Shown here: one piece after another, positions 1 through 63,878 of the stretch
Layout: each line of letters begins with the position of its first letter
Position numbering within the stretch: position 1 is the stretch's first letter
IMG/VR virus record: IMGVR_UViG_3300037418_002332
Strand: one strand, 5' to 3'
Source: a virus
Lineage: Duplodnaviria > Caudoviricetes
DNA length: 64,000 nt
Position numbers and translations under genes: made by a program
The notes under the pieces: generated by a model
What the model was told of the DNA's origin: nothing
What the model saw: the letters and a program-made list of their open reading frames with translations, nothing else
The model's database searches: none

Positions 1-161
1 ACGACGGTTCAAGCTTTACGATTTACAGTTCGACCGTTGTTGGCTATACGCAGCGCGGCGCACAGTTCGTGAAGTATCCTACACGTTTCACTGACGTTAG
101 GATGAAGGATGGTTCCAAGATGGGTATGCCGTCCGAGGAGAAGATGATCAAGGAGTTCTAA
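1..161 (+). CDS. 3' end of a hypothetical protein (partial)
   Basis: Open frame from base 3 (...DGSSFTIYSSTVVGYTQRGAQFVKYPTRF...KMIKEF) ends in TAA 159-161, overlapping the next ATG. Confidence 0.6.
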   Translation, partial: DGSSFTIYSSTVVGYTQRGAQFVKYPTRFTDVRMKDGSKMGMPSEEKMIKEF

Positions 162-616
162 TGAAAGTTTCTGACGTCCCGTTCGATAAATTATACGTCG
201 GGACGTCAGTTATTTCAGCCTTGGGAACTTATGGCACAATCACAAGCGTATCACATAATCCAAATTATGCCCCGAATGATCCTGATGGAGATTATGTTTC
301 CATCGATTGGACCAACGGTGGTAAATCTACTCACCGTCATTACATGCTTGATAAGGTAACATTGAATATGGCAATCGAATTTGTGAATAACAGCTTGTTC
401 ATGAATGCTGATAGATACAACAGCCTTAAGAAATACGACAATATGTATCTATCACATTTTGATTTGGTTGCTATCGTTTTCGACAAACCAACCCATGGCA
501 TGGATGGTGTCAAAGTTTTGAAGTGTCGGTTTTGGGACACCAAAACTCATAAAGAAGTCATTGACTTCTCTGAATTTAAAATGCTTTGTGATCAATACAT
601 TTTAAATGATGATTGA
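161..616 (+). CDS. hypothetical protein
   Basis: 151 aa ORF, TAATG-coupled to the upstream gene, preceded by aggag. Confidence 0.7.
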   Translation: MKVSDVPFDKLYVGTSVISALGTYGTITSVSHNPNYAPNDPDGDYVSIDWTNGGKSTHRHYMLDKVTLNMAIEFVNNSLFMNADRYNSLKKYDNMYLSHFDLVAIVFDKPTHGMDGVKVLKCRFWDTKTHKEVIDFSEFKMLCDQYILNDD

Positions 617-641
617 CTTTTCAATCGAACAAGCCTAAATA
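613..641 (+). promoter_or_regulatory. putative sigma70-type promoter overlapping a T4-type late promoter motif (CTAAATA 635-641)
   Basis: TTGACT-N17-TAAATA upstream of nadM; CTAAATA recurs before other genes in the window. Confidence 0.45.
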
Positions 642-647
642 AAATCG

Positions 648-698
648 CGTTGGGATAGACCTGACGTTTTCAAAAAATCTAAAAGGAGTTTTTAGATG
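648..698 (+). promoter_or_regulatory. two-hairpin mRNA leader (GG-AUAGA-CC hairpin plus SD-in-loop hairpin), copy 1
   Basis: CGTTGGG-ATAGA-CCTGACG stem-loop, then TCTAAAA-GGAGT-TTTTAGA whose last base is the A of ATG. Confidence 0.6.
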
Positions 699-1754
699 CC
701 TCGCATAAATCAATACGACTACGCAGTTTTCATGGGACGATTTGAACCATACCACGATGGACATCATACGATCGTCCTACGTGCATTGGAAGTTGCTGAC
801 AAACTAATCTTGGTAATGGGTTCGGACAACCGTCCACGCACTATCAAAAATCCATTCAGTTCGGATGAACGACGCGCCATGATCATGGCAGCATTGACAC
901 CTGAACAGATCGAACGTGTGTATTTTGTTGCGCAAGAAGATTACTATTACAGTGACACCAAGTGGCTGGAAAGTGTTCAGAAGAAAATCCAGACCATCGT
1001 TTGGGAAAAGTTCAATCCTGATCCAATCAAAATCACTCTGATTGGACACAAAAAGGACAATAGTTCATATTACATTGATCTTTTCCCTCAATGGGCCTTT
1101 ACGGATGTGCAAAATCATAATATGCTGTCCGCTACAAATATTCGTAACGCAATGTTCAACGGTAAAGTTGAAGGTTGGGGACCAGCGTTATGGAATCAAG
1201 TTCCTGAAGGCACACATGCTTATCTCGAACAACTTCGAATATCAAAGATCAATGAGTTCGTTTCACTGAATCGTGAATGGGCTTTCATTGAGAAATACAA
1301 GGAACAGTGGAAGTCTGCTCCATATGCACCAACCTTTGTGACTTGTGATGCGACTGTTATCCAGTCAGGTCACGTATTGCTGGTGAAGCGTCGGGCTGAA
1401 CCTGGCAAAGGTCTTTGGGCTGTTCCTGGTGGGTTCTTGAATCCAGGCGAACGAATCAAAGATGGTATTTTCCGTGAGTTGAAGGAAGAAACCAAAATTG
1501 ACGTTCCTGAAAAGGTTCTTCGTGGTTCGCTCCGTGGAATCAAAGTGTTTGACCATCCGGATCGTTCATTGCGTGGACGCACTATCACGCACAATGCTTT
1601 GATCGTTCTACCGAATGGTTCACTGCCAAAAATCAAAGGCAGTGATGACGCAGAAGTTGCCAAGTGGACACCACTTGGTGAAGTGAATTCTTCAAATATG
1701 TTTGAGGATCATTATGATATGGTTCAAATTCAAAAAGATCTCGTAACTGGCTGA
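696..1754 (+). CDS. nadM: bifunctional NMN adenylyltransferase / Nudix ADP-ribose pyrophosphatase (NadM-Nudix)
   Basis: N-terminal GRFEPYHDGH (HxGH-type) nucleotidyltransferase motif and SATNIR; C-terminal Nudix box GGFLNPGERIKDGIFRELKEET and GSDDA. Confidence 0.93.
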   Translation: MPRINQYDYAVFMGRFEPYHDGHHTIVLRALEVADKLILVMGSDNRPRTIKNPFSSDERRAMIMAALTPEQIERVYFVAQEDYYYSDTKWLESVQKKIQTIVWEKFNPDPIKITLIGHKKDNSSYYIDLFPQWAFTDVQNHNMLSATNIRNAMFNGKVEGWGPALWNQVPEGTHAYLEQLRISKINEFVSLNREWAFIEKYKEQWKSAPYAPTFVTCDATVIQSGHVLLVKRRAEPGKGLWAVPGGFLNPGERIKDGIFRELKEETKIDVPEKVLRGSLRGIKVFDHPDRSLRGRTITHNALIVLPNGSLPKIKGSDDAEVAKWTPLGEVNSSNMFEDHYDMVQIQKDLVTG

Positions 1755-1797
1755 GGATAGACCAAGCCAATAATTTTGCAAAGGAGTTTTGCACATG
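1748..1797 (+). promoter_or_regulatory. two-hairpin mRNA leader, copy 2
   Basis: TGGCT-ga-GG-ATAGA-CC-a-AGCCA stem-loop, then TGCAAA-GGAGT-TTTGCA one base before ATG 1795. Confidence 0.6.
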
Positions 1798-3186
1798 CAT
1801 AAAATTTTCGAAACAATTATCATCGACACGGACAGCTACAAATTCAGTCACTGGCTTCAATATCCTGAAGGCACGACCAAAATTTGGTCATACATTGAAC
1901 CACGCGTTGATGGCGTTGAAATGGTGAATTTCGGCCTTCAGGCTTTCGTTAAAGAATATCTGTCTGAACGAATCACCAAGGCGGACGTTGATTTTGCTGA
2001 ACGTGTCATCACTGCTCACGGATTGCCTTTCAATCGTATGGGTTGGATGACAATCGTCAATAAACATGACGGATATCTGCCAATTCTTATTGAATCCTTG
2101 CCAGAAGGAACCGTGTTTAATTCACACAATTGCCAGGTTCAGGTTGTCAATACGGATGATGAATGTTTCTGGTTGGTATCATACATCGAAACTGCATTGA
2201 TTCGTGCTCTTTGGTATCCTTCAAGTGTTGCGACAATTTCACGCAACATCAAAAAGGTTCTGAAGAAATACTGGGATTTGACTTCAGATGCTCCAATCGA
2301 AAGCATTGAGTTCAAGCTTCATGACTTTGGTTCACGCGGTGCAAGCTCACAGGAAACCGCAAAGCTTGGTGGTATGGCTCATCTTGTGAATTTCAAGGGA
2401 ACTGATACGGCTGTTGCTTTGATTGGTGCAATGCAGTGGTATGGTGATATCAACAATCCAGAAAATAACATGCCTGGTTTCTCAATCCCAGCTTCAGAAC
2501 ACTCAACAATCACCTCATGGGGTGTTGAGCACGAAGAAGATGCTTACAGAAACATGGTTCAGAAGTATGCTGGTGAAGGCAAGATTTATGCTTGTGTTTC
2601 TGACTCATATGATTTCCATCGTGCTGTCGATGACATCTGGGGGACTGATCTGAAGGATGAAATTTTGAAGGCTGGTGGAACATTGGTTGTTCGTCCTGAC
2701 TCAGGTGAACCAGTCACTGAAGTTCTATTTGCGTTGAATTCACTGTACAAAAACTTCGGTGGTGAAGTCAACTCAAAGGGATACAAGGTTTTGAATCCTT
2801 CAGTTCGTTTGATTCAAGGTGATGGCATTGATCCAACCAAGCTTGAAGAAATTCTATATGTGATGTATCAGGATGGTTGGGCAATTGACAACATTGCTTT
2901 CGGTATGGGTGGTGGGCTTCTACAAAAAGTTAATCGTGACACCTTCAGCTATGCTCAAAAGGCATGTGCTAAAGAAGTTGGTGGTGAAATCACCAACGTG
3001 TTCAAGAAACCCGCAACCGATAGCAAAAAGGCCAGCAAGAAGGGCATTCTATCAACCTATCGTGAAAATGGTAAGTGGGTGACCACCAATGACCGAATGA
3101 AGAATGAAATGATTCCGATCTTCAAGCATGGTCAACTTTTGAATGAAACCACCTTTGACGAAATCAGGGAACGTGCAAAACTATGA
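1795..3186 (+). CDS. nadV: nicotinamide phosphoribosyltransferase (NAMPT)
   Basis: DTDSYKFSH, LHDFGSRG, SIPASEHS, VSDSYD, LVVRPDSGEP, IQGDGI, FGMGGGLLQKVNRDT motifs; start moved to ATG 1795 after GGAG. Confidence 0.95.
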   Translation: MHKIFETIIIDTDSYKFSHWLQYPEGTTKIWSYIEPRVDGVEMVNFGLQAFVKEYLSERITKADVDFAERVITAHGLPFNRMGWMTIVNKHDGYLPILIESLPEGTVFNSHNCQVQVVNTDDECFWLVSYIETALIRALWYPSSVATISRNIKKVLKKYWDLTSDAPIESIEFKLHDFGSRGASSQETAKLGGMAHLVNFKGTDTAVALIGAMQWYGDINNPENNMPGFSIPASEHSTITSWGVEHEEDAYRNMVQKYAGEGKIYACVSDSYDFHRAVDDIWGTDLKDEILKAGGTLVVRPDSGEPVTEVLFALNSLYKNFGGEVNSKGYKVLNPSVRLIQGDGIDPTKLEEILYVMYQDGWAIDNIAFGMGGGLLQKVNRDTFSYAQKACAKEVGGEITNVFKKPATDSKKASKKGILSTYRENGKWVTTNDRMKNEMIPIFKHGQLLNETTFDEIRERAKL

Positions 3187-3383
3187 CACAAGATAATGTA
3201 TTGACTTTCTTTCAATGGTACTTTACAATCGGTATGATAATGCTATTGTTTGGTATCTTCGTCGAAGGAAAAAAGTTGGAGAAGTACGGAACGTTCCGCG
3301 TGTTTGTAACGTTTTGTACATATCTGATGTTTTATCCATTGGCGATCTATTTGAATTGGAAGCACAATGCAAAGCGAAAATGA
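3183..3383 (+). CDS. small membrane protein
   Basis: 66 aa, two hydrophobic segments, ATGA overlap with nadV. Confidence 0.6.
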   Translation: MTQDNVLTFFQWYFTIGMIMLLFGIFVEGKKLEKYGTFRVFVTFCTYLMFYPLAIYLNWKHNAKRK

Positions 3384-3816
3384 TTTGAATCCTCGGGAAG
3401 TCGTGGAAAAGGATGGTAAAACCAAAACCATAGTCTACGACTTCTTTAAACCATTATGGGATGAAAACACAAAACAGTGGCTTTTGCAGTCAGTGAAAAC
3501 TGGTCATCAATACTGGTTTTATGAATTGACCAATCAACCTGTCAATTCACGATTTGAATCATACCATGAAGAATATCATCGCAATTTGGATGAAGCTTCA
3601 TTGTATCATATGACGCCTGTGTTTGCAACTCATTGGCTCAAAATGCTTTTGTATTATGAATCAATGGAATATGCTGACAACAAGCGGTTGCAATTTTTGA
3701 AAGATAACCTGTTGCCTGATCTTTCACCAAAGGAATCAGCCAAGGTTTCAAAAAAGTCAGAACAAGTCTACCAGTCAGCTTATCCTGAATTTTTCACGAA
3801 ATTCAATGACTGGTAA
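3367..3816 (+). CDS. hypothetical protein
   Basis: 149 aa ORF in operon tiling. Confidence 0.6.
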   Translation: MQSENDLNPREVVEKDGKTKTIVYDFFKPLWDENTKQWLLQSVKTGHQYWFYELTNQPVNSRFESYHEEYHRNLDEASLYHMTPVFATHWLKMLLYYESMEYADNKRLQFLKDNLLPDLSPKESAKVSKKSEQVYQSAYPEFFTKFNDW

Positions 3817-4021
3817 TTCTGATCTTGCCCAATATATAAATGATCATTATGGCAGATGTAAGGTGAGTCCTTGCGTCTGCCTTAAAACAGGTCCATGGCT
3901 GGGCACGTTGTGTCTGAATTGGCAACCAATCGGATGCGACAACTACGAACAACTCAAACACAAAATGAAGGAGCAATACCCATGCATCATGGAAAAGGCG
4001 GCAAAGGAAGAAGAAAAGTAG
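3806..4021 (+). CDS. hypothetical Cys-containing protein
   Basis: 71 aa ORF overlapping its neighbour, several Cys. Confidence 0.5.
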   Translation: MTGNSDLAQYINDHYGRCKVSPCVCLKTGPWLGTLCLNWQPIGCDNYEQLKHKMKEQYPCIMEKAAKEEEK

Positions 4022-4058: not shown

Positions 4059-4334
4059 ATGATTTCAATCGAAGAACTGGTTGGACTTCCGGAGTTTATA
4101 GAAAACCCCGAATCAAAAATGTTAAAGCGTAAGGCAAACGCTGAATTTGACATGCAGTTCTTCGATCTATTGCCACAAACAATACGTGACATCTTAAATG
4201 AATCCGAAGTTCCTGTTACTGGACAAATGGCAGCAAACATCTTGCGCACCAAAAAGTTCAATGAGCAGGAAGCAGCAAAGGAAATTAGGAGAATAATTAA
4301 TGAGTTCAAAGCAAACTATTTTCGATCAATATGA
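4059..4334 (+). CDS. hypothetical protein
   Basis: 91 aa ORF in tiling. Confidence 0.55.
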   Translation: MISIEELVGLPEFIENPESKMLKRKANAEFDMQFFDLLPQTIRDILNESEVPVTGQMAANILRTKKFNEQEAAKEIRRIINEFKANYFRSI

Positions 4335-7346: not shown

Positions 7347-9392
7347 GTGCTTTATAATGTCGAAAAGAAGAACGTTGTTTCTTCTGGTGAAATTTCCACC
7401 CGCAAAATCACTCTTTCAGCTAATGCCAAGGCTTTCCGTCTGTTGTTCGGTCAGATGTATCCGGACATTAAGAAGGCTATCGTTCGTGAGCTCTTCACGA
7501 ACGCTTGGGACAGCCAGAAGAATGCTGGAACTCTGGACACTCCGATCCAGATTCATATCCCTACGAATTGGGAACCGTATTTTTCTATCCGTGATTTCGG
7601 CACCGGCATGTTGCCTTCGGTGGTTGATCAAATCTATTCCAGGATTTTCGAATCAACCAAGGATGCTTCGAATGATGAAGCCGGCATGTTTGGCATGGGG
7701 TCCAAGACCCCACTAGGTTACGGTGATTCGTTCTCAGTAACGTCATACGTTGACGGGACGTTCTGGTACTATGATATTTACATGGACTCAGACGCTTCTC
7801 CGAACATTTCGCTGAAGGCCACTGGTGAAACTGATGAAGCCGATGGCGTTCTGGTTCAGCTTGGTGTTCAAGAAGCTGACTTTGAAGCTTTCAAACAGCA
7901 TACCGAACACTTTGCTTTGGGCGCCAACACTCCGATTGAAATCAATCGCCAGAAGTACCTGAACAAGAGGGAAATTCTGAAGGCTGGTGACGGCTGGCAG
8001 CTTTATAAGCCGCGCAATAATTATGAAGATGTTGATGTTGCGCAAATTCGTATGGGACCTGTTCTGTATCGTTTGAACATGGCTTATATGAACAGCTATG
8101 CGCCTTCGTCAATGTATGACAAGCGCAATGGTATTTCTACGCTGCTGAAGAAGCCAATCGTGATGGACTTCGATATCGGTGTCTTCAACGTCACTGGTTC
8201 TCGCGAAGATATCATTTACGATCGTGATTCGGTCGCAAAGATTTACGATAAGCTGGCAATTGCTCTTGACGCAATTCGCAAGGATGCGTATGAAGATATT
8301 CAGAACTGCGAAACTTATCGGGATGCGTTCTTCAAGTTGAAGGAATACACTGAATTGGGCTTTGGTCCGACCAAGCCTAAGTACGGTGCGTTGCCTCTGA
8401 CTCAGACTATGGACAAGAAGAAGTTTCCTGGTCTGGAGTTCATGATGAACCCAATCAAGAAGAAGCGTATGGATCGCTTTGAGCCGGCAAGCTATCTTCA
8501 GTTGTACAGTCTGTATGACACAAGCGTTGTGATGAATTATTTCATCGTGGTCCAGAAGGATGCTAAGGTTCAGCGTTTGAACCAGCGTCTGGAAAATCTG
8601 ATGGAACATCTGACTGCTCGAATGTCTTACAAGCGCAATTCGTATTCGTATCGCAATGGCTTCAATTTGATCTATGTTGAATATGAAAAGAAGTCAAACC
8701 TTAACCGGCTGCTTCCTTTCGTTGGCCCGAATGCGATCTTCATTGAACTGGAGGATATTGAGCGCAAGATCAATAAGCGTGGCGCCAAGGTTGCTGGGTC
8801 TGATATGGCCAAGTGGGTCAAGACCTCAATCTATGGCAACGTCGAGATTTCTGATAGTCAGGTTGAGATGGAAGACGACATGTATTATGTCGAAACTGTC
8901 TACAGCAACTTTGAAGCAGATGAAAGCATTATCAAGTCTGCTATTAAGTTTTACAATCTTCAGCCTGATGAAAAGGTTCTTTGCCTCGGCAAATCCCAGC
9001 GTCATCTTGTTGCAAAATACAACTTTGTTGACTTGGTAAAGGAATTCGAGGCTGATCGTCTCAAAATCCGCTACAACAAGGATACAATGAATAAGCATGC
9101 TTATGCATGGGCCAAGAGCGATCGTTCTTTGTCTTCCAATTTGTTTGACTCTGAAGAATTTCAGTCTTATGCGATGTCGGATTATAAGCATGACGAAACA
9201 AACGTTGAGCCTGATTTCAATTATAGCATCAACGAAGACGTGAAAACTGAGTTCCTGGAACTGGTAGAAAAAATTAAAGAAACTTACAAGAAATTCTTTG
9301 ACTCCAAGCCAATTCTCAGGTATATAAGCACTTATGAACTGGCAGAAAATTTTACAGACGTTATGAACACCATCGAGGAGATGTCTAAATGA
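7347..9392 (+). CDS. rIIA: rIIA lysis-inhibition protein
   Basis: N-terminal GHKL/HATPase-like AIVRELFTNAWDS, IRDFGTG, GMFGMGSKTP; directly upstream of rIIB. Confidence 0.88.
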   Translation: MLYNVEKKNVVSSGEISTRKITLSANAKAFRLLFGQMYPDIKKAIVRELFTNAWDSQKNAGTLDTPIQIHIPTNWEPYFSIRDFGTGMLPSVVDQIYSRIFESTKDASNDEAGMFGMGSKTPLGYGDSFSVTSYVDGTFWYYDIYMDSDASPNISLKATGETDEADGVLVQLGVQEADFEAFKQHTEHFALGANTPIEINRQKYLNKREILKAGDGWQLYKPRNNYEDVDVAQIRMGPVLYRLNMAYMNSYAPSSMYDKRNGISTLLKKPIVMDFDIGVFNVTGSREDIIYDRDSVAKIYDKLAIALDAIRKDAYEDIQNCETYRDAFFKLKEYTELGFGPTKPKYGALPLTQTMDKKKFPGLEFMMNPIKKKRMDRFEPASYLQLYSLYDTSVVMNYFIVVQKDAKVQRLNQRLENLMEHLTARMSYKRNSYSYRNGFNLIYVEYEKKSNLNRLLPFVGPNAIFIELEDIERKINKRGAKVAGSDMAKWVKTSIYGNVEISDSQVEMEDDMYYVETVYSNFEADESIIKSAIKFYNLQPDEKVLCLGKSQRHLVAKYNFVDLVKEFEADRLKIRYNKDTMNKHAYAWAKSDRSLSSNLFDSEEFQSYAMSDYKHDETNVEPDFNYSINEDVKTEFLELVEKIKETYKKFFDSKPILRYISTYELAENFTDVMNTIEEMSK

Positions 9393-10543
9393 TTCCTTAT
9401 ACACTTAACGATACGGGCATCACTTTCTTCCTGAAATCTCAGCGGACCTTTGCGAATGATTTCGCTCAGTTTGCTGAACTTGTGAAGGCAGTGATTGCCG
9501 GCGACGTGGCCGCTGTTGACCGCATCGCAAATCCCCGCAAGGTTATTGCGGCTGCTTCGGAAGGCAAGATTGTTATCAGCACCGACGACGAAGTGCTGTT
9601 CAATGGCCAGTCAGTTCCTGACTATCTGGCTCATCGTCTGCTGTCCCACTTCAAGCAGAGCCTTCCTATCGCTCCTCTTTGTGCATTCGCTGAAAAGCTG
9701 ATGGCCAATCCGAACCTGGACGTTCGTGAGGATATGTACAAGTGGCTGGAAGCTGGTCAGATGCCTATCTACGCCGACGGTGACTTCATGGCTTACAAGC
9801 TGGTGAAGGCTGACTTCACCCCAATCCATTCCGGTGGTAAATATGGCCAGGACCAGAGCGTTGGTAAGGTTGTTGAGCAGCCTCGCGAAACTTGTAACGA
9901 AAACCGCAATGACACCTGTTCCAGCGGTCTTCACTTCTGCTCATATTCTTATCTGCCTCACTTCGGTCTTGGCAGCGGCGGATATGTTGTGATTGTTCTC
10001 AAGATCAATCCAAAGGACGTCGTTTCAATCCCAACCGATTACAATCTGGCGAAGGGTCGTACCTGTCGCTTTGAGGTTGTCGATACGGTTGACAAGGATG
10101 TGATCAACGAAACCTTTGGTGGTCGCTTGGTCCTTCACAGCGTTGGCACCTATCAGGCACCAGCTGAAGGCTTCGACGAAAATGAAGTTCAGGAAGGCAA
10201 TACCGATGATCGCGGCGATCGTGCTCGCGAAGCGGTTGAGCGTCTCGGCACCAAGACTGCGGCTGCGGCCGAACTTGGTATTTCCCGTTCAACGCTCACC
10301 CGTTGGTTGGAAATTCCTGCTGTATCAAAAGTTGAAGATACGGCTGCACTTGATGCTGAAGAAGATTTCGACGATCTTGATGACTCATGGGAAGACGACT
10401 CATGGGACGAATACGATGCTGTGGATGAAAAGTCCAATCGTGAAATTGCTGAAGAAGCAATTGAGGAACACGGTACCAAGACCGCAGCTGCTGAGGCTTT
10501 GGGTATTTCCCGGTCAACGCTGACTCGTTGGTTGAATTCTTAA
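9389..10543 (+). CDS. rIIB: rIIB lysis-inhibition protein with two C-terminal HTH repeats
   Basis: GDFMAYKLV, CSSGLHFCSYSYL, INPKDVVSIPTDYN, KGRTCRFEV motifs typical of rIIB. Confidence 0.88.
   Translation: MIPYTLNDTGITFFLKSQRTFANDFAQFAELVKAVIAGDVAAVDRIANPRKVIAAASEGKIVISTDDEVLFNGQSVPDYLAHRLLSHFKQSLPIAPLCAFAEKLMANPNLDVREDMYKWLEAGQMPIYADGDFMAYKLVKADFTPIHSGGKYGQDQSVGKVVEQPRETCNENRNDTCSSGLHFCSYSYLPHFGLGSGGYVVIVLKINPKDVVSIPTDYNLAKGRTCRFEVVDTVDKDVINETFGGRLVLHSVGTYQAPAEGFDENEVQEGNTDDRGDRAREAVERLGTKTAAAAELGISRSTLTRWLEIPAVSKVEDTAALDAEEDFDDLDDSWEDDSWDEYDAVDEKSNREIAEEAIEEHGTKTAAAEALGISRSTLTRWLNS
10247..10540 (+). repeat. two copies of an HTH-coding repeat (GTKTAAA.ELGISRSTLTRWL)
   Basis: Near-identical peptide at about 10247-10310 and 10472-10540, separated by a D/E-rich linker. 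Confidence 0.85.
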
Positions 10544-10553
10544 TCAACCTTTA

Positions 10554-10586
10554 TGGTGGGCTGGATTAACTGGCCCACCAATTTCC
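10554..10586 (+). terminator. putative intrinsic terminator after rIIB
   Basis: TGGTGGGCTGG-attaa-CTGGCCCACCA hairpin followed by attt. Confidence 0.55.
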
Positions 10587-10599
10587 GTAGGAGAGTAAA

Positions 10600-11772
10600 A
10601 TGGCAGGCTTTGAAGTTAAGATTGTGAAGATCGATGATGTTATCGATCACCCAAATGCTGATCGCCTTTCTTTGGTGAAGATCGCTGGCTATTCGGTTGT
10701 TTCCGGTAAGCTGGAGGATGGGTCACATCGTTACAAAGCCGGTGATTTGGTTGCATATGTTCCAGAAAATGCAGTCGTTCCTGAATACCTTTTGAAGAAA
10801 GGTTATTGGAACGATAACGAAAACAAGGGAATGTTGGCTGGTAAGAACGGTGATCGAGTGAAGCCTATAAAGCTTCGCGGCGTCATTTCTGAAGGCATTA
10901 TGTTCCCTGTTACCGATCATGTTGAGCCGACTGGAAACGTTTTGAAAGCAATTGATGGTCCAATGCGTTATGTTGACGGCATTGGTGAAGTCAAGAGCAA
11001 AAAGATCGTTGAAGAAGGCGATGAAGTTTCAGAGTATCTTGGCATCACCAAGTATGAACCTGAAATTCCGGCAACCATGGCTGGAGACGTGATCGGTCGA
11101 ATTGATCTACCAGTGAAGTATGATATCGAAAACATCAAGAAATACGATCGTGTGTTTGATGTGGGTGATGACGTTTACATGACTGAAAAGCTTCATGGAA
11201 CACAAGCTCAATTCGGGTGGCTTCCAAATGGTAATGATCCAGAACTAATCGAAGGCCAGTTCTTCGCAGCGTCCAAAGGCATCGCCTCACAAGGATTGGT
11301 GTTCAAGGATACTGAACAGAACCGAACCGCAAATCTTTATGTCAAGACTTTGATCAGTATGATCGACAAAATCAAAATGCTAAAGGATTTTGCATCAGAA
11401 ACGTCCAAGGTTGTATTGTTTGGTGAAATCTTCGGCAAGGGAATTCAAGACCTTGGCTACAATGAAGACAAGCCAACATTCCGAGTGTTTGATATCTGGA
11501 TGGATGGTTCATTCTTGGACTTCAATGATTTGATGCGGATTTGCGATTACGCAGAGATTCCTATGGTGCCAATTCTTTATGTTGGTCAATTCACATGGGA
11601 AGATCTAAAGCGTGAGACAGCCGGCAAGTCTAAACTGGGTGGAACTCACATTCGTGAAGGCGTCGTTGTTAAACCTTTGAAGGAACGCACTAACGAATGG
11701 ATTGGCCGTGTCATTCTGAAGTCAATCTCAGATGAGTATCTTGGTCGAAAGAACGGAACAGAGTACAACTAA
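10600..11772 (+). CDS. RNA ligase, DRB0094-type with N-terminal OB/tRNA-binding-like module
   Basis: HPNADRLSL N-terminus; motif I TEKLHGT; FGEIFG, FRVFDI, REGVVVK, ILKSIS. Confidence 0.85.
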   Translation: MAGFEVKIVKIDDVIDHPNADRLSLVKIAGYSVVSGKLEDGSHRYKAGDLVAYVPENAVVPEYLLKKGYWNDNENKGMLAGKNGDRVKPIKLRGVISEGIMFPVTDHVEPTGNVLKAIDGPMRYVDGIGEVKSKKIVEEGDEVSEYLGITKYEPEIPATMAGDVIGRIDLPVKYDIENIKKYDRVFDVGDDVYMTEKLHGTQAQFGWLPNGNDPELIEGQFFAASKGIASQGLVFKDTEQNRTANLYVKTLISMIDKIKMLKDFASETSKVVLFGEIFGKGIQDLGYNEDKPTFRVFDIWMDGSFLDFNDLMRICDYAEIPMVPILYVGQFTWEDLKRETAGKSKLGGTHIREGVVVKPLKERTNEWIGRVILKSISDEYLGRKNGTEYN

Positions 11773-18942: not shown

Positions 18943-19523
18943 GTATGGATTTATTTGAATCAAGTTTGGTCGAATTGACCAAAAGCATCATGTCTGAGAA
19001 TATCACATTTGCTGAGGTTGGTGAGGATGAAAAAATGCCGTGGCATAAACGGCATTATGAGAAAAGAATCTCTAAGGTCATCCTTTATTTGGAACAGGAA
19101 GGCAAGTGTTGCTTTTGTTCCGTTCGAATGTATGCCCATGCTAGTGGTAATCCCAAGCAGGATTCAGCTACCATTGAACATGTTCAATGCAGGCAGCACG
19201 GCGGCAAGGATGATATCAGCAATTACAAACTTTCCTGCTATATGTGCAACAATCTTCGTGGCACAATGGATTATGACGCATTCTTTGAATTGATCCAAAA
19301 ATACGGAAGAAATGGCTATAATTTGATCCAAAAAGCAGTTAAAAAGGATAGGAAGAATCAAGCTAAGGAACGCAAAAAAGCTAACGAGCTTGAGCAGCAA
19401 AGAATTGCTAAACTGCTTGGTGAAGAGAAAGCTAGGAAGAAACAAGAAAATAAGCAGCGCATGATGTTTGAGATGGCATATGGCGCATTGTACAAGTCGG
19501 CAATCTATAGGAAAGCGGCATGA
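18939..19523 (+). CDS. HNH endonuclease with C-terminal coiled coil
   Basis: CCFC, ATIEHV....GG.D.ISN..LSC..CN..RG. Confidence 0.8.
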   Translation: MSMDLFESSLVELTKSIMSENITFAEVGEDEKMPWHKRHYEKRISKVILYLEQEGKCCFCSVRMYAHASGNPKQDSATIEHVQCRQHGGKDDISNYKLSCYMCNNLRGTMDYDAFFELIQKYGRNGYNLIQKAVKKDRKNQAKERKKANELEQQRIAKLLGEEKARKKQENKQRMMFEMAYGALYKSAIYRKAA

Positions 19524-20689
19524 TCTACGATTTTGCAAATATCAAGACGATCGATCCAATCCTTGAAGTAATCAAGGACAAGCCAGAGTTCATCGTTGCA
19601 AACCGTGATTGGTACAATATCGTCAATTACATGGTGAACAAGGAAGACACGTTTCCAAATATCACGTCTCAGACCAACAAGAAGGAATTGCCAAAAGCTG
19701 TCCTGCTTCGCGAACTTCGTGGCATTGCGTTTGACGAAAATGGTGAAATCATCCATCGTTCATTGCACAAGTTCTTCAATTTGAATGAACGTCATGAAAC
19801 GATGCAACGTTTGATTGATTTCAAGGAACCACATGTGATGCTCGATAAGCTGGACGGTTCTATGCTTCGTCCATTGTTTAACCGTCAACACAATGGCTTC
19901 CGTATGGCAACCAAGATGGGTGTGACGGATGTTGCTTTCAATGCTGAGGTTTTCGTTTCTGAAAATCCAAAGTATTTCAAGCTGTTTCGTTATTGCTGGG
20001 ATAATGGTTTATCACCAACTTTCGAGTGGTGTTCTGAGCTCAATCGTATCGTCATTCTGTATAAGGACGACAATTTGGTGTTGACTGCTATTCGTGGACT
20101 TCACGACGGTAAGTACATGCCATACCATGAGATGGTTGATCTTGGTGCAAAGTTTGACATTCCAGTGGTCGGTGCTCATGACTCAGTCACAGACATCGAT
20201 GCTTTCTTGGCAAAGTTGAATGATTACACTAATATCGAAGGCTTCATAGTTCGTTTCGACACCGGTCAAATGTTGAAGATCAAGACGGATGAATATTGCT
20301 TGCAACACAAGTCCAAGGATATTGTTTCCTCAAAGAGGCAAATCATTGAACTCGTTTTGGATGAGAAAATCGATGACATCAAGCCGCGCTTGATTCAAGA
20401 AGATCTCGACAAGGTTGCCGGTGTAGAAAAAGAAGTTTTTGATGTAATTCAATCAATGTCCACGAAACTGAATGACGTGCATGCGCGTTATAAGCATATG
20501 GACAAGAAGAACTTCGCTCTGAACATTGCTGACAAGTTGACTCCTTTCGAAAGAAAGGGTTTCTTCTCAATGATGGACGGCAAGCAGCCAATTGAATTGG
20601 TTCGTCAATTCTTGAGGTCAAATGTTGGCAACAACGTAAAGCTTCAAGCCCTGAAGGATCAGTACAAGGTCTTCGTTGACGCGGAATGA
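19520..20689 (+). CDS. rnlA: RNA ligase 1 (T4 RnlA family)
   Basis: ELRGIAFD, HKFFNLNE, motif I DKLDGS, TFEW, EGFIV, LKIKTDEY. Confidence 0.9.
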   Translation: MIYDFANIKTIDPILEVIKDKPEFIVANRDWYNIVNYMVNKEDTFPNITSQTNKKELPKAVLLRELRGIAFDENGEIIHRSLHKFFNLNERHETMQRLIDFKEPHVMLDKLDGSMLRPLFNRQHNGFRMATKMGVTDVAFNAEVFVSENPKYFKLFRYCWDNGLSPTFEWCSELNRIVILYKDDNLVLTAIRGLHDGKYMPYHEMVDLGAKFDIPVVGAHDSVTDIDAFLAKLNDYTNIEGFIVRFDTGQMLKIKTDEYCLQHKSKDIVSSKRQIIELVLDEKIDDIKPRLIQEDLDKVAGVEKEVFDVIQSMSTKLNDVHARYKHMDKKNFALNIADKLTPFERKGFFSMMDGKQPIELVRQFLRSNVGNNVKLQALKDQYKVFVDAE

Positions 20690-51549: not shown

Positions 51550-52260
51550 TTAAGATTTGATTGCCTTTGGTTTGATGTCAAACATGTATTCATTATCTTC
51601 ACCAACCTTTTCAGCTACCAATTTTGCCCTTGGTTCTTTAATCTTTTTCTTACGAACATAAACAACAGGACATTTATCATTCAATGCATTTTGGATGGTT
51701 TGTTTGAACCATCCTTCTGAGTCAGGTCTACAAATCAAACAAACCATTGAATCATCAAATTTAAATCCAAGGGCATTTGTCAATGTTACTGGATATTCTG
51801 CAGTTTCATACTTTACAACATCAATGCATGTCACTTCGAAACCTTCATCAGCAAGTATTTTGCCAACATGACCGGTGCCTGCTCCACAATCTATTATGTG
51901 TTTACCTGAATACAATTCTTTCATCTTATCAATGAATATTTGTTTCGGTTTGAAATATATTTCATTTGGAAGGAAATTAGGAACTGCTTCAAGTATTTCA
52001 GCAAATTGCTCATCAGTCAAAGTTCGTTCATTGTATGAAGCAACAATTTCACTTTCATGTGCTTTTTTATAAGCTGCTATGACTTCATCTGTCCAAACTG
52101 TTTTGTGTGCTTCATTGACAGCATCTCTAACTTCAGGAATCAAAAAATCATCTGCAGACATTCTGATCCATTTGTTATCAACAATTTGAGCTGGTGGAAT
52201 TTCGAAAGTGACACCAGGAATTTCAAGATGGAGAATCTTGAATGGACCTACATAGTTCAC
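51550..52260 (-). CDS. class I SAM-dependent methyltransferase with N-terminal tail-associated domain
   Basis: IIDCGAGTGHVG, VTCIDV; N-terminus ...EVRDAVNEAHKTVWTDEVIAAYK. Confidence 0.7.
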   Translation of the reverse strand: MNYVGPFKILHLEIPGVTFEIPPAQIVDNKWIRMSADDFLIPEVRDAVNEAHKTVWTDEVIAAYKKAHESEIVASYNERTLTDEQFAEILEAVPNFLPNEIYFKPKQIFIDKMKELYSGKHIIDCGAGTGHVGKILADEGFEVTCIDVVKYETAEYPVTLTNALGFKFDDSMVCLICRPDSEGWFKQTIQNALNDKCPVVYVRKKKIKEPRAKLVAEKVGEDNEYMFDIKPKAIKS

Positions 52261-62366: not shown

Positions 62367-63878
62367 TTAGAACTTGACGATAATCTTAACGTCTTCTTGT
62401 TGATCAGATGAACGGCTGATAGGTGAACGATTTTCGATATACAATAGCTTGCCCTGATATTTCTTTAGATCAGGCTTTGTAATACCAACAACTGTAGCAG
62501 TAGCACCGGATGTACCACCAGTGATAGTTTCATTGTTAGCGAACAATGTCACATTACCAGTGACCATCAATACTGTATTGGAATGATATTCAACTGAGTA
62601 AGCAGTTGCACCACTTGTACCACCAGTAACAACTTCGTCAGCAGTAAAGGTCAAGGAAGGGTTGTCAAGTGTCAAACGAGTTGTTTGGTCATAGGTTGTA
62701 TCAGTAGCAACAGTGTTAGCAACCAATTCAACTGGATCAACGATCAGGCCAACTGTACGGAAATCATTAGCGATGAAGAATGTATTGGACTCAGAACCAG
62801 TCATCTTAACGTTCATGATGATATTGTGCGCAAATAGTTCACTGACCGCATCCTTACCATGACCACCTACAGGTGAAACTTGGGCATCAATGGTAGCACC
62901 TGAACCAGTGTTCGCTGTAACTGTACCAGTGACACGAGTATAGTTTGAACCTGGAACGATAACATTGATCTTGGAAATCTGTCCACCTGATACTCGGCTG
63001 ATCGCCTTTGCACCAGTACCATCGCCAGAAATATTAACAGTTGGACTAACGATATATGTTGAACTTGTATCTACAGCTGGTGAGAATGCCGGTGATACAG
63101 TGATTTGCTTGGTAGCACCATCGTAGTCAACGATTGAACGAATTTGACCAGCACCTGTACCGGATGCAATGTATACTGTGCTGAAATTGTAAATGTTATT
63201 TGTAGAGTTCGCAGTTGGTTGAAGTCTGGCAGTAGTTGTACCACCCAGCACAATCGCGCCAGAATGTTCCTTATAGTTTGAACCACCAGTCGTAACCAAT
63301 ATTGAACTCAATGAGCCATTAACCGCAGCTTGTTGGACGGCCCATTGGTCTGAACCGTCATCTGATGCCAGCACCTTAGTCGGAATAATTTTCGTTGTAC
63401 TGAACTTCAATGCGTCAGCAGCTGTGACAGTGTACATATATTTCCAAACATAACCATCACCAGTGGTCAAATTGGAAGTAGAACGACCTGTAGGCTTTAC
63501 AGTACTTGGAACGCCACCATTGTTATAGATGCACTTGTAAACATAAAAGTCTTCAGTAATGACATAGAAACGATTATTTGAAAAGAATTCAGTGTCACTG
63601 GTGTACTGGTCATAGACTGTACCTGATGTCCAATCCACTCTATCTACACCATATGAAACGTCCGATGGTGTAATACGCTTCAATGCCAACATATTGTCCC
63701 AAACATTGTAGACCGTTTCATTGGTCGTATCAAGTGGTTCAGGTGGTGAATTTTCGTTGTCCCATGGATTTGAACGTGCCAGGAAGAAGTAGATTCTTGA
63801 TGGCGCAGCTTCATCAAACTGTTCGTAGAATTGTTCAGCTGAATGCAATCTGAAATTCTTCGTAATTTTTCCTGGCAT
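62367..63878 (-). CDS. baseplate wedge subunit (gp8)
   Basis: Y.FLAR..PW..E..PP.P, W.NM.A.KRI, R.DW.SGT.YD.Y, YVYKC..N, GDGYVWKYMY, PI..S.DQ.E..KI. Confidence 0.92.
   Translation of the reverse strand: MPGKITKNFRLHSAEQFYEQFDEAAPSRIYFFLARSNPWDNENSPPEPLDTTNETVYNVWDNMLALKRITPSDVSYGVDRVDWTSGTVYDQYTSDTEFFSNNRFYVITEDFYVYKCIYNNGGVPSTVKPTGRSTSNLTTGDGYVWKYMYTVTAADALKFSTTKIIPTKVLASDDGSDQWAVQQAAVNGSLSSILVTTGGSNYKEHSGAIVLGGTTTARLQPTANSTNNIYNFSTVYIASGTGAGQIRSIVDYDGATKQITVSPAFSPAVDTSSTYIVSPTVNISGDGTGAKAISRVSGGQISKINVIVPGSNYTRVTGTVTANTGSGATIDAQVSPVGGHGKDAVSELFAHNIIMNVKMTGSESNTFFIANDFRTVGLIVDPVELVANTVATDTTYDQTTRLTLDNPSLTFTADEVVTGGTSGATAYSVEYHSNTVLMVTGNVTLFANNETITGGTSGATATVVGITKPDLKKYQGKLLYIENRSPISRSSDQQEDVKIIVKF

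Follow-up and report, generated by a model that had tools for sequence, protein, structure and literature searches.

What governs the two nicotinamide adenine dinucleotide (NAD) salvage genes of a T4-like phage, and why does each of them stand behind the same pair of small RNA hairpins? The genes are nadM and nadV, neighbors in a stretch of 64,000 nucleotides (nt), hereafter the window, that spans positions 105,197 to 169,196 of the 247,119-base virus record IMGVR_UViG_3300037418_002332, whose G+C content is 39.8%. Together they specify the NARP2 pathway, a phage route for rebuilding NAD+ once NAD-depleting defenses fire, and the nicotinamide salvage route of many bacteria as well. The name NARP2 for nadV plus nadM-Nudix comes from the phage literature (PMC13464706), where the pathway is reported, citing Osterman et al. 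2024, to be costly in Escherichia coli through its draw on phosphoribosyl pyrophosphate (PRPP). An earlier note on this DNA had described a two-hairpin RNA architecture before both genes and before no other gene in the window; direct reading and folding confirm the architecture at both places, far beyond chance. The parts of the two leaders, and the genes that they precede, are as follows:

647 to 667, plus strand: hairpin 1a, an 8-bp stem with three G.U pairs and the pentaloop AUAGA (655-659) closed by G654:C660; -9.0 kcal/mol, z -3.8
668 to 676, plus strand: spacer a, 9 nt, A/U-rich and single-stranded
677 to 697, plus strand: hairpin 2a, 8 A/U-rich pairs with the Shine-Dalgarno (SD) sequence GGAGU (685-689) as its loop; -5.0 kcal/mol, with 0 of 200 shuffles as stable
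696 to 1754, plus strand: nadM, 352 amino acids (aa), a bifunctional nicotinamide mononucleotide (NMN) adenylyltransferase and Nudix ADP-ribose pyrophosphatase; matches to CTP_transf_like (1.4e-12) and NUDIX (4.3e-17)
1748 to 1769, plus strand: hairpin 1b, 5 bp, a 2x1 internal loop (G1753 and A1754 against A1764), GG/CC and the pentaloop AUAGA (1757-1761); -8.2 kcal/mol
1770 to 1776, plus strand: spacer b, A/U-rich
1777 to 1793, plus strand: hairpin 2b, 6 bp with the SD loop GGAGU (1783-1787); -4.4 kcal/mol
1795 to 3186, plus strand: nadV, 463 aa, a nicotinamide phosphoribosyltransferase (NadV/NAMPT); matches to NAPRTase (2.3e-53) and NAMPT_N (6.9e-25), alignment A1

The Nudix box REUXEE of NadM reads as intact, and alignment A1 places the true start of nadV at ATG 1795, not at the TTG 1789 of the open reading frame (ORF) list. 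The minimum free energy (MFE) and centroid structures from ViennaRNA both coincide with the folds listed, with whole-leader energies of -14.0 (nadM) and -12.6 (nadV) kcal/mol. The stem sequences differ between the two leaders, both SD loops are closed by A:U, and the 9-mer GGATAGACC occurs only twice in the entire 247,119-base genome, counting both strands, these being the two leaders. The G of loop 1 lies 27 nt from the SD in the nadM leader (658 to 685) and 23 nt from it in the nadV leader (1760 to 1783). A696 and U697 of the nadM start codon (696-698) are paired inside the 3' arm of hairpin 2a, and C1794 is the single base between hairpin 2b and the nadV AUG; the nadM stop codon UGA (1752-1754) sits in the 5' arm of hairpin 1b.

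DNA contigs from four soil or rhizosphere runs are identical wherever they cover this stretch and give no natural variants to compare; the comparison was made with relatives. Viral loci were fetched around NadM and NadV relatives (28 and 80 loci, 35 to 57% protein identity), with the NadV relatives in viral contigs retrieved with an alignment query, and bacterial leaders were sought in the 80 NadV loci closest to the query. A covariance model (R1) was built on a seed alignment (A2) of 44 sequences drawn from these relatives and both window copies. Run over nadV and nadM loci of phages and bacteria, much as the earlier note had proposed, it finds the same leader before both genes, and finds it widely. 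The two-hairpin architecture precedes nadM, nadV, or both in most of about 100 distant phage contigs, and 139 of 172 distinct leaders fold into two hairpins in their MFE structure, 91 having a 5-nt loop that ends in G-A or G-U; the commonest loop is AUAGA (49), followed by AGAGA (17). The leader is common in the bacterial loci as well; its carriers are gammaproteobacteria (Thalassolituus, Microbulbifer, Hahella, Budvicia, Pragia, Neptuniibacter, Alcanivorax, Thiothrix, methanotrophs, and Aquimonas), epsilonproteobacteria (Sulfurovum and Sulfuricurvum), alphaproteobacteria (Caulobacter and Aestuariispira), betaproteobacteria (Variovorax and Xenophilus, with the loop GUUGA), and a cyanobacterium of the Xenococcaceae.

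The stems of this family covary. The named pairs are formed in 86% of the cells of the seed alignment, compared with 49% after shuffling and 33 to 43% when the partners are slid by 1 to 3 columns, and double changes occur at 14 of the 14 pairs. Because the seeds were picked for folding, a test on unselected ATAGA words was added: of 139 distinct words in nadM or nadV leader zones, 77% have at least three and 45% at least five contiguous flanking pairs, compared with 6.8% and 1.2% of the 1,821 words elsewhere in the same loci. The AUAGA-loop hairpin is enriched at NAD genes elsewhere, one of the points on which the earlier note had staked its proposal, and R1 matches in phages and bacteria agree. 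Variable stems that covary, a conserved loop, a place that is always on the coding strand, and a fixed distance to the SD bear out the argument for selection at the RNA level, and the leader is very probably a real, selected cis-acting RNA.

A signal read in the DNA, whether as the binding site of NrtR or some other transcription factor or as an intrinsic terminator separating the genes, is by the same evidence a very remote alternative. NrtR operators do precede nadM-nadV in Synechocystis (PMC2330246), and four T follow hairpin 1a (667-670), but the arms of the leader are free to vary around a conserved center, the reverse of NrtR operators and of protein-bound palindromes generally, so that an NrtR-type operator does not fit, as the earlier note had supposed. 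The 171 model matches are without exception in the coding orientation and keep a fixed distance from the SD, and the terminator interpretation was rejected, as a terminator scan calls neither hairpin and no U-tract follows hairpin 1 in the family.

How specific is the leader for these genes? R1 scores 47.0 bits at 645-698 and 30.1 bits at 1747-1796, figures that are partly so by construction with both window copies among the 44 seeds, and the two leaders are its only matches in the whole 247-kb genome, which upholds the claim that no other gene carries the arrangement. A third window match (4088-4154, 18 bits, E 0.13) was judged to be chance; it falls inside an ORF (4059-4334), and an 18-nt insertion replaces the SD loop. 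Over 98 phage loci (621 kb), the model gives 90 matches at E < 0.1, every one on the coding strand: 39 are upstream of nadM, 45 upstream of nadV, and 6 upstream of small ORFs at the head of nadM or nadV operons. The 85 bacterial loci yield 81 matches (E up to 1), with almost every one placed before one of the two genes. Whole-genome specificity was examined in 11 genomes. Matches in five further phage genomes (257 to 355 kb) are confined to the NAD locus; those in five bacterial genomes are the nadM and nadV leaders and one weak match (G004:C57, 27 bits), discarded as a terminator-like hairpin with no ORF after it, one of the five genomes having no match. Among 1,423 leaders of other genes, 2 show the motif, both within NAD loci.

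What is unique to the NAD genes is the combination of hairpin 1 with hairpin 2; one correction to the earlier note concerns the SD-in-loop hairpin, which alone is common in this A/T-rich genome. We note that such hairpins occur in 115 of 700 crude ORF leaders (∼16%) of this phage, and that hairpins with a GGAG loop and the ATG at the foot of the 3' arm recur, for example at window positions 4283-4298 (before the ORF at 4300) and 52222-52242. They may be a feature common to ribosome binding sites in A/T-rich T4-like phages.

Several unusual placements of the leader were also seen. The small ORFs behind it in some phages code for 81 to 155 aa, belong to no Pfam family, and overlap or abut nadM or precede nadV (L066:3818-4171, L092:90-446, L108:87-554, L085:1142-1468, and L055:1544-1897 and 2196-2441); those of L066 and L092 are mutually homologous. 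Two gammaproteobacterial genomes have a third leader-bearing gene directly 3' of nadV, coding for a 343-aa SPFH/Band_7 protein (L158:5448-6536 and L140:4508-5607). There are two orphan copies: L180:2775-2823 is a complete leader that precedes no gene; it lies 5' of the nadV leader, and the nadM of that genome has been relocated. L123:4382-4439, after nadV, has hairpin 1 alone followed by T residues.

Across the family, hairpin 1 has a variable stem of 6 to 8 bp, closed by G:C in 61 of 87 cases or C:G in 20 of 87, and a loop with A at position 1 (79/87), U (56) or G (23) at position 2, A at position 3 (82/87), G at position 4 (86/87), and A at position 5 (77/87); position 2 varies freely, even within one genome. 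An A/U-rich spacer of about 8 to 10 nt follows (7.9 ± 2.5 nt in phages). Hairpin 2 is closed by A:U in 82 of 87 cases, and its loop opens with an invariant GGA, followed by G, U, or A and then by U, C, or A. The distance from G4 of loop 1 to the SD, for which about 19 to 34 nt was taken as the criterion of a leader, averages 23.9 ± 2.2 nt in phages and 26.1 ± 2.8 nt in bacteria. Its variance is about half of what the variances of its components add up to, a compensation that is partly an artifact of where the stem end is set. Hairpin 1 stands at about -48 to -30 from the AUG, at the 5' edge of the ribosome binding region, and the 3' end of hairpin 2 falls within -3 to +3 nt of the AUG in most leaders. 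Hairpin 2 is weak in phages (mean of -3.2 kcal/mol) and stronger in bacteria (-5.0 kcal/mol), and in several bacterial nadV leaders it is extended, with the AU of the AUG paired. Both window leaders share the defining traits of the family: an ANRGA loop 1, the SD in loop 2, the distance, the score, and the coding-strand place.

The leader is built of two static modules and is not the usual two-state switch. Pairing of each hairpin with its own arm stands far above that in permuted leaders (z -35 and -28), and cross-pairing of hairpin 1 with hairpin 2, the spacer, or the AUG region is no better than in permuted leaders (z -1.3 to +1.6).

From this geometry, and by analogy with known operators, the leader probably acts on translation. 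The loop of hairpin 2 contains the SD GGA, and its 3' arm takes in the spacer from SD to AUG and often the AUG as well; with the SD and the AUG region thus enclosed, the 30S subunit would have to melt it. The pentaloop A-N-A-G-A of hairpin 1 would be the specificity determinant for a reader acting in trans. The explanation toward which we lean is that the two hairpins form a translational operator of nadM and nadV, with a protein of the cassette as the candidate autogenous repressor. Protein bound to loop 1, perhaps also in contact with the SD loop some 25 nt downstream, would keep the leader closed or prevent the 30S subunit from docking; nadM and nadV would be repressed in parallel, which would match the synthesis of the two enzymes and restrain the PRPP-consuming pathway. 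The PRPP cost of NARP2 would be a reason for such tight control (PMC13464706). Ribosomes that terminate at the nadM stop inside hairpin 1b may also open that hairpin and so couple nadV translation to that of nadM.

Does the leader need a reader at all? A candidate promoter, found by reading, lies before the nadM leader:

613 to 641, plus strand: TTGACT (613-618), 17 nt, and TAAATA (636-641)

Transcription from this candidate would start at about 647-649, in the first bases of hairpin 1a; a consensus promoter scan picked an overlapping weaker pair at 618-645, and no promoter is evident before hairpin 1b. Among phage leaders, 37 of 89 carry TTGAC-N16-18-TAnnn[TA], and in 33 of 89 a TAAATA ends 0 to 5 nt before the model start; a TAAATA- or TATAAT-like element so close upstream would make hairpin 1 the 5' end of the mRNA in such leaders. 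That position, a few bases from the predicted transcription start at many loci including this one, is what would be expected of a constitutive leader without a dedicated reader, whose hairpin 1 shields the 5' or processed end from RNase E- or RppH-type decay and whose hairpin 2 presents the SD and sets a fixed, moderate rate of translation, loop 1 being conserved for folding or for contact with the 30S subunit. It accords with the frequency of hairpin 2 alone before other genes and with the A/U-rich spacer after a hairpin, a typical RNase E context. A general stabilizer, however, should be found on other genes, whereas this leader is confined to NAD-salvage loci in the searched genomes; hairpin 1b and other internal copies do not stand at a 5' end; and the loop is kept across alpha-, gamma-, and epsilonproteobacteria, cyanobacteria, and phages while the stems drift, which points to specific recognition. 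We therefore regard a leader of this constitutive kind as unlikely.

If the leader is read, the reader could be a metabolite or a protein. The earlier note had left the choice between a translational operator and a riboswitch-like element; its view that the element is specific to NAD genes and points to translation initiation stands, but the evidence leans against a direct metabolite sensor. A minimal riboswitch would bind NAD+, NMN, ADP-ribose, nicotinamide, or PRPP through its loops or hairpin 1, the docked form hiding or exposing the SD. In keeping with this, the leader is tied strictly to two enzymes of one pathway across very different hosts and phages, no dedicated regulator gene accompanies it, its loop-to-SD distance is constrained, and in information content and size it is close to the guanidine-II (mini-ykkC) riboswitch, which also consists of two small hairpins with conserved loops. 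Like guanidine-II and the NAD+ riboswitches it is a small leader before the SD, and the NAD+ classes likewise control NAD genes. Outside the SD, however, only four unpaired bases are conserved, with no conserved internal loop or junction, and a single type of expression platform is seen. A guanidine-II-type arrangement, in which two ACGR loops can pair with each other, was rejected because the loops AUAGA and GGAGU are not complementary to each other (nor is either self-complementary, as in guanidine-II) and no cross-pairing rises above that of the permuted controls; no conserved alternative or pseudoknot pairing was seen.

Comparison with Rfam NAD riboswitch models, which the earlier note had suggested, gave no resemblance: NAD+ class I (the nadA motif) and class II (the pnuC motif) are unmatched. 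A search of window positions 1 to 4000 against Rfam 15 with cmscan (E up to 10) returns chance-level matches only, the best over the leader being DUF2815 RNA at 18.6 bits against a gathering score of 41.2, and 17 related loci give nothing relevant. The searchable literature, including the KVP40 and NARP papers, reports no leader, hairpin, or untranslated region for nadV or nadM, and describes no posttranscriptional control of the nadV/nadM-Nudix pathway, only DNA repression of the NrtR type. Absent from both Rfam 15 and that literature, the leader is a candidate for an uncatalogued RNA family.

Loop 1 itself speaks further against a ligand pocket. It falls into at least four classes that replace each other by lineage, ANRGA (A), GNNGUA (B), GNAGU (C), and GUUGA (D), and the class is concordant across both leaders of a genome: 34 genomes are A/A, 13 are B/B (GNNGUA, in jumbo phages), 1 is C/C, and 1 is D/D. 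Class A is never mixed with B, C, or D in one genome, and one genome is classed C/B. The jumbo-type variant has a 6-nt loop and is outside the reach of R1; it is present in phages whose hosts are not known to have nadM or nadV. A ligand pocket shared by the family should be invariant, whereas classes that switch jointly in both leaders are what a co-evolving protein reader predicts. A riboswitch is accordingly quite unlikely, and on balance a protein reader is somewhat more likely than not.

The jumbo-phage group with the G-N-N-G-U-A loop has a further peculiarity, a 172-aa ORF between nadM and nadV (L012:4091-4612 and homologues, 11 loci) that has no Pfam match; a strong terminator-like hairpin lies ahead of it in several of the loci, L012 among them.

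A protein reader might be borrowed from the host, the leader then being the operator of a CsrA/RsmA-like, PyrR-like, or other RNA-binding regulator. The closed loop of hairpin 2 (A-GGA-N-N-U) conforms to the CsrA type of site, and CsrA works through a pair of sites, an upstream loop and an SD-GGA loop in its two-site operators, where the spacing of ∼25 nt seen here would be within the bridging range of the dimer. Loop 1, however, is mostly ANAGA and not ANGGA; AUAGA lacks a GGA, CsrA (PF02599) is missing from the phage, a search of five leader-bearing genomes (alpha- and betaproteobacteria, a cyanobacterium, and a methanotroph) did not find it either, and the leader serves nadM and nadV only, in contrast to a broad CsrA/RsmA regulon. 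A CsrA operator was rejected on these grounds. The likeness to PyrR lies in the purine-rich AGAGA-type loops closed by C:G, which recall the PyrR binding loop of Bacillus pyr leaders; the reader there has a phosphoribosyltransferase fold and senses nucleotides and PRPP, and one enzyme under the nadM/nadV leader uses PRPP too. PyrR, by contrast, acts by transcription attenuation through an anti-antiterminator, whereas no terminator lies downstream of these leaders; the Rfam model of the PyrR binding site does not match even the AGAGA-loop leaders, no PyrR-type phosphoribosyltransferase (PF00156) is present in the phage, the commonest leader loop is AUAGA closed by G:C, and NadV is a type II, not a type I, phosphoribosyltransferase.

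Host range bears on the same point. The leader is found in phages of Salmonella (phage Munch carries it), Klebsiella, Cronobacter, and Serratia, hosts that are not known to have nadM or nadV or regulons for them, and host RNA chaperones such as Hfq, ProQ, and CsrA are not known to span the full host range, epsilonproteobacteria and cyanobacteria included. A reader that works in all of these would be encoded in the cassette, or be a metabolite or the ribosome, and a host regulator is highly unlikely.

Within the translational-operator reading, the likeliest reader would be NadM-Nudix or NadV. The enzyme would repress translation autogenously, with metabolites of the pathway tuning its binding to RNA, an assignment that we make only tentatively. 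The recurring proteins in the flanks are NadV (103 loci) and NadM (100 loci), the next genuine cluster being in 19 loci, and no third protein recurs there as a constant companion of the leader. The leader follows the gene pair and not either gene alone: in 5 of 5 cases a leader-bearing nadV without an adjacent nadM is accompanied by a leader-bearing nadM elsewhere in the genome, while nine genomes with a single gene of the pair lack it, among them nadV in five NadM-less genomes and nadM in three NadV-less genomes. Four NadM lysines (K51, K263, K312, and K314 of P0001), three of them within the Nudix domain, are K or R in 90 to 100% of 70 leader-bearing genes and in 17 to 33% of six leaderless ones. 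Binding of NadM-Nudix to the leader is compatible with these data. That one of the two enzymes moonlights as a sequence-specific RNA-binding repressor of both genes, tuned by NAD, NMN, or ADP-ribose, is a plausible conjecture, and we would not go further than that.

Several observations weigh against this reading. Phylogeny explains the NadM lysines equally well, as the six leaderless comparators are all more distant, and no NadV residue, basic or otherwise, separates leader-bearing from leaderless genes (the largest frequency difference is 0.4). Neither NadM-Nudix nor NadV is known to have an RNA-binding domain. The concordance of loop classes could be explained by an old duplication of one leader within each lineage. 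On a NadV tree of 169 sequences, independent pairs contrasting nadM in the flank with hairpin 1 on nadV give a median p of 0.45, with traits that are noisy from short flanks and a crude hairpin caller. The strand test is modest, with 109 G.U pairs against 81 A.C, a weak preference for the sense strand. Aeromonas phage 44RR2.8t and two gammaproteobacterial genomes of ∼2 Mb have both genes and no leader, which shows it to be dispensable. In 44RR2.8t (NC_005135.1; L208 and L210), which is T4-like, nadV and the NadM homologue each follow the preceding gene after a short gap, and this suggests translational coupling.

The proposed operator has close analogues among known systems. The thrS operator of E. 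coli is one in which an enzyme represses its own mRNA and hairpins with specific loops upstream of the SD block the 30S subunit; its proximal hairpin lies at about -49 to -13 with the SD accessible, and a dimeric protein reads two hairpins. Hairpin 1 of the nadM/nadV leader stands at the upstream edge of the 30S region, as does domain 2 of the thrS operator. The thrS loops, however, mimic the tRNA anticodon loop, and no mimicry of a ligand is evident here; the nadM/nadV leader also has its SD inside a hairpin loop, serves two different genes, and has a reader that is only proposed. In the replicase operators of MS2 and PP7 and the gene 43 operator of T4 and RB69, a small hairpin at the start codon with few loop determinants is stabilized by protein binding and blocks initiation, and T4-like phages are thus a familiar setting for such control. 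Those are single hairpins, each in one phage group, whereas the nadM/nadV leader has two modules, serves metabolic genes, and occurs in unrelated phages and on bacterial chromosomes.

If the operator reading is right, NARP2 and bacterial nicotinamide salvage would be gated on the mRNA by one portable element of ∼50 nt that moves with its genes between bacteria and unrelated phages. It would explain how a costly, PRPP-draining pathway is restrained and would offer a portable regulatory part. The leader is short, strongly covarying, and gene specific from cyanobacteria to jumbo phages, and would be either an operator read by an enzyme or a very small riboswitch.

The 247-kb record derives from soil and rhizosphere metagenomes, and no close relative of the phage was present in the phage collection searched. 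Its T4-like character is shown by genes for rIIA, rIIB, both RNA ligases, a Dda-type helicase, and a baseplate wedge protein, the markers lying as follows:

7347 to 11772, 19520 to 20689, and 62367 to 63878 of the window: T4-like marker genes (rIIA, rIIB, RNA ligase, gp63-type RNA ligase/tail-fiber attachment protein, and baseplate wedge subunit)

The ORFs that flank the NAD pair (window 161-616 and 3183-3816; 151, 66, and 149 aa) belong to no Pfam family, and the 151- and 149-aa ORFs, the two that were compared with PHROGs, have no match there either. The 151-aa ORF and the candidate -35 element of the nadM leader share bases, at the stop codon of the ORF.

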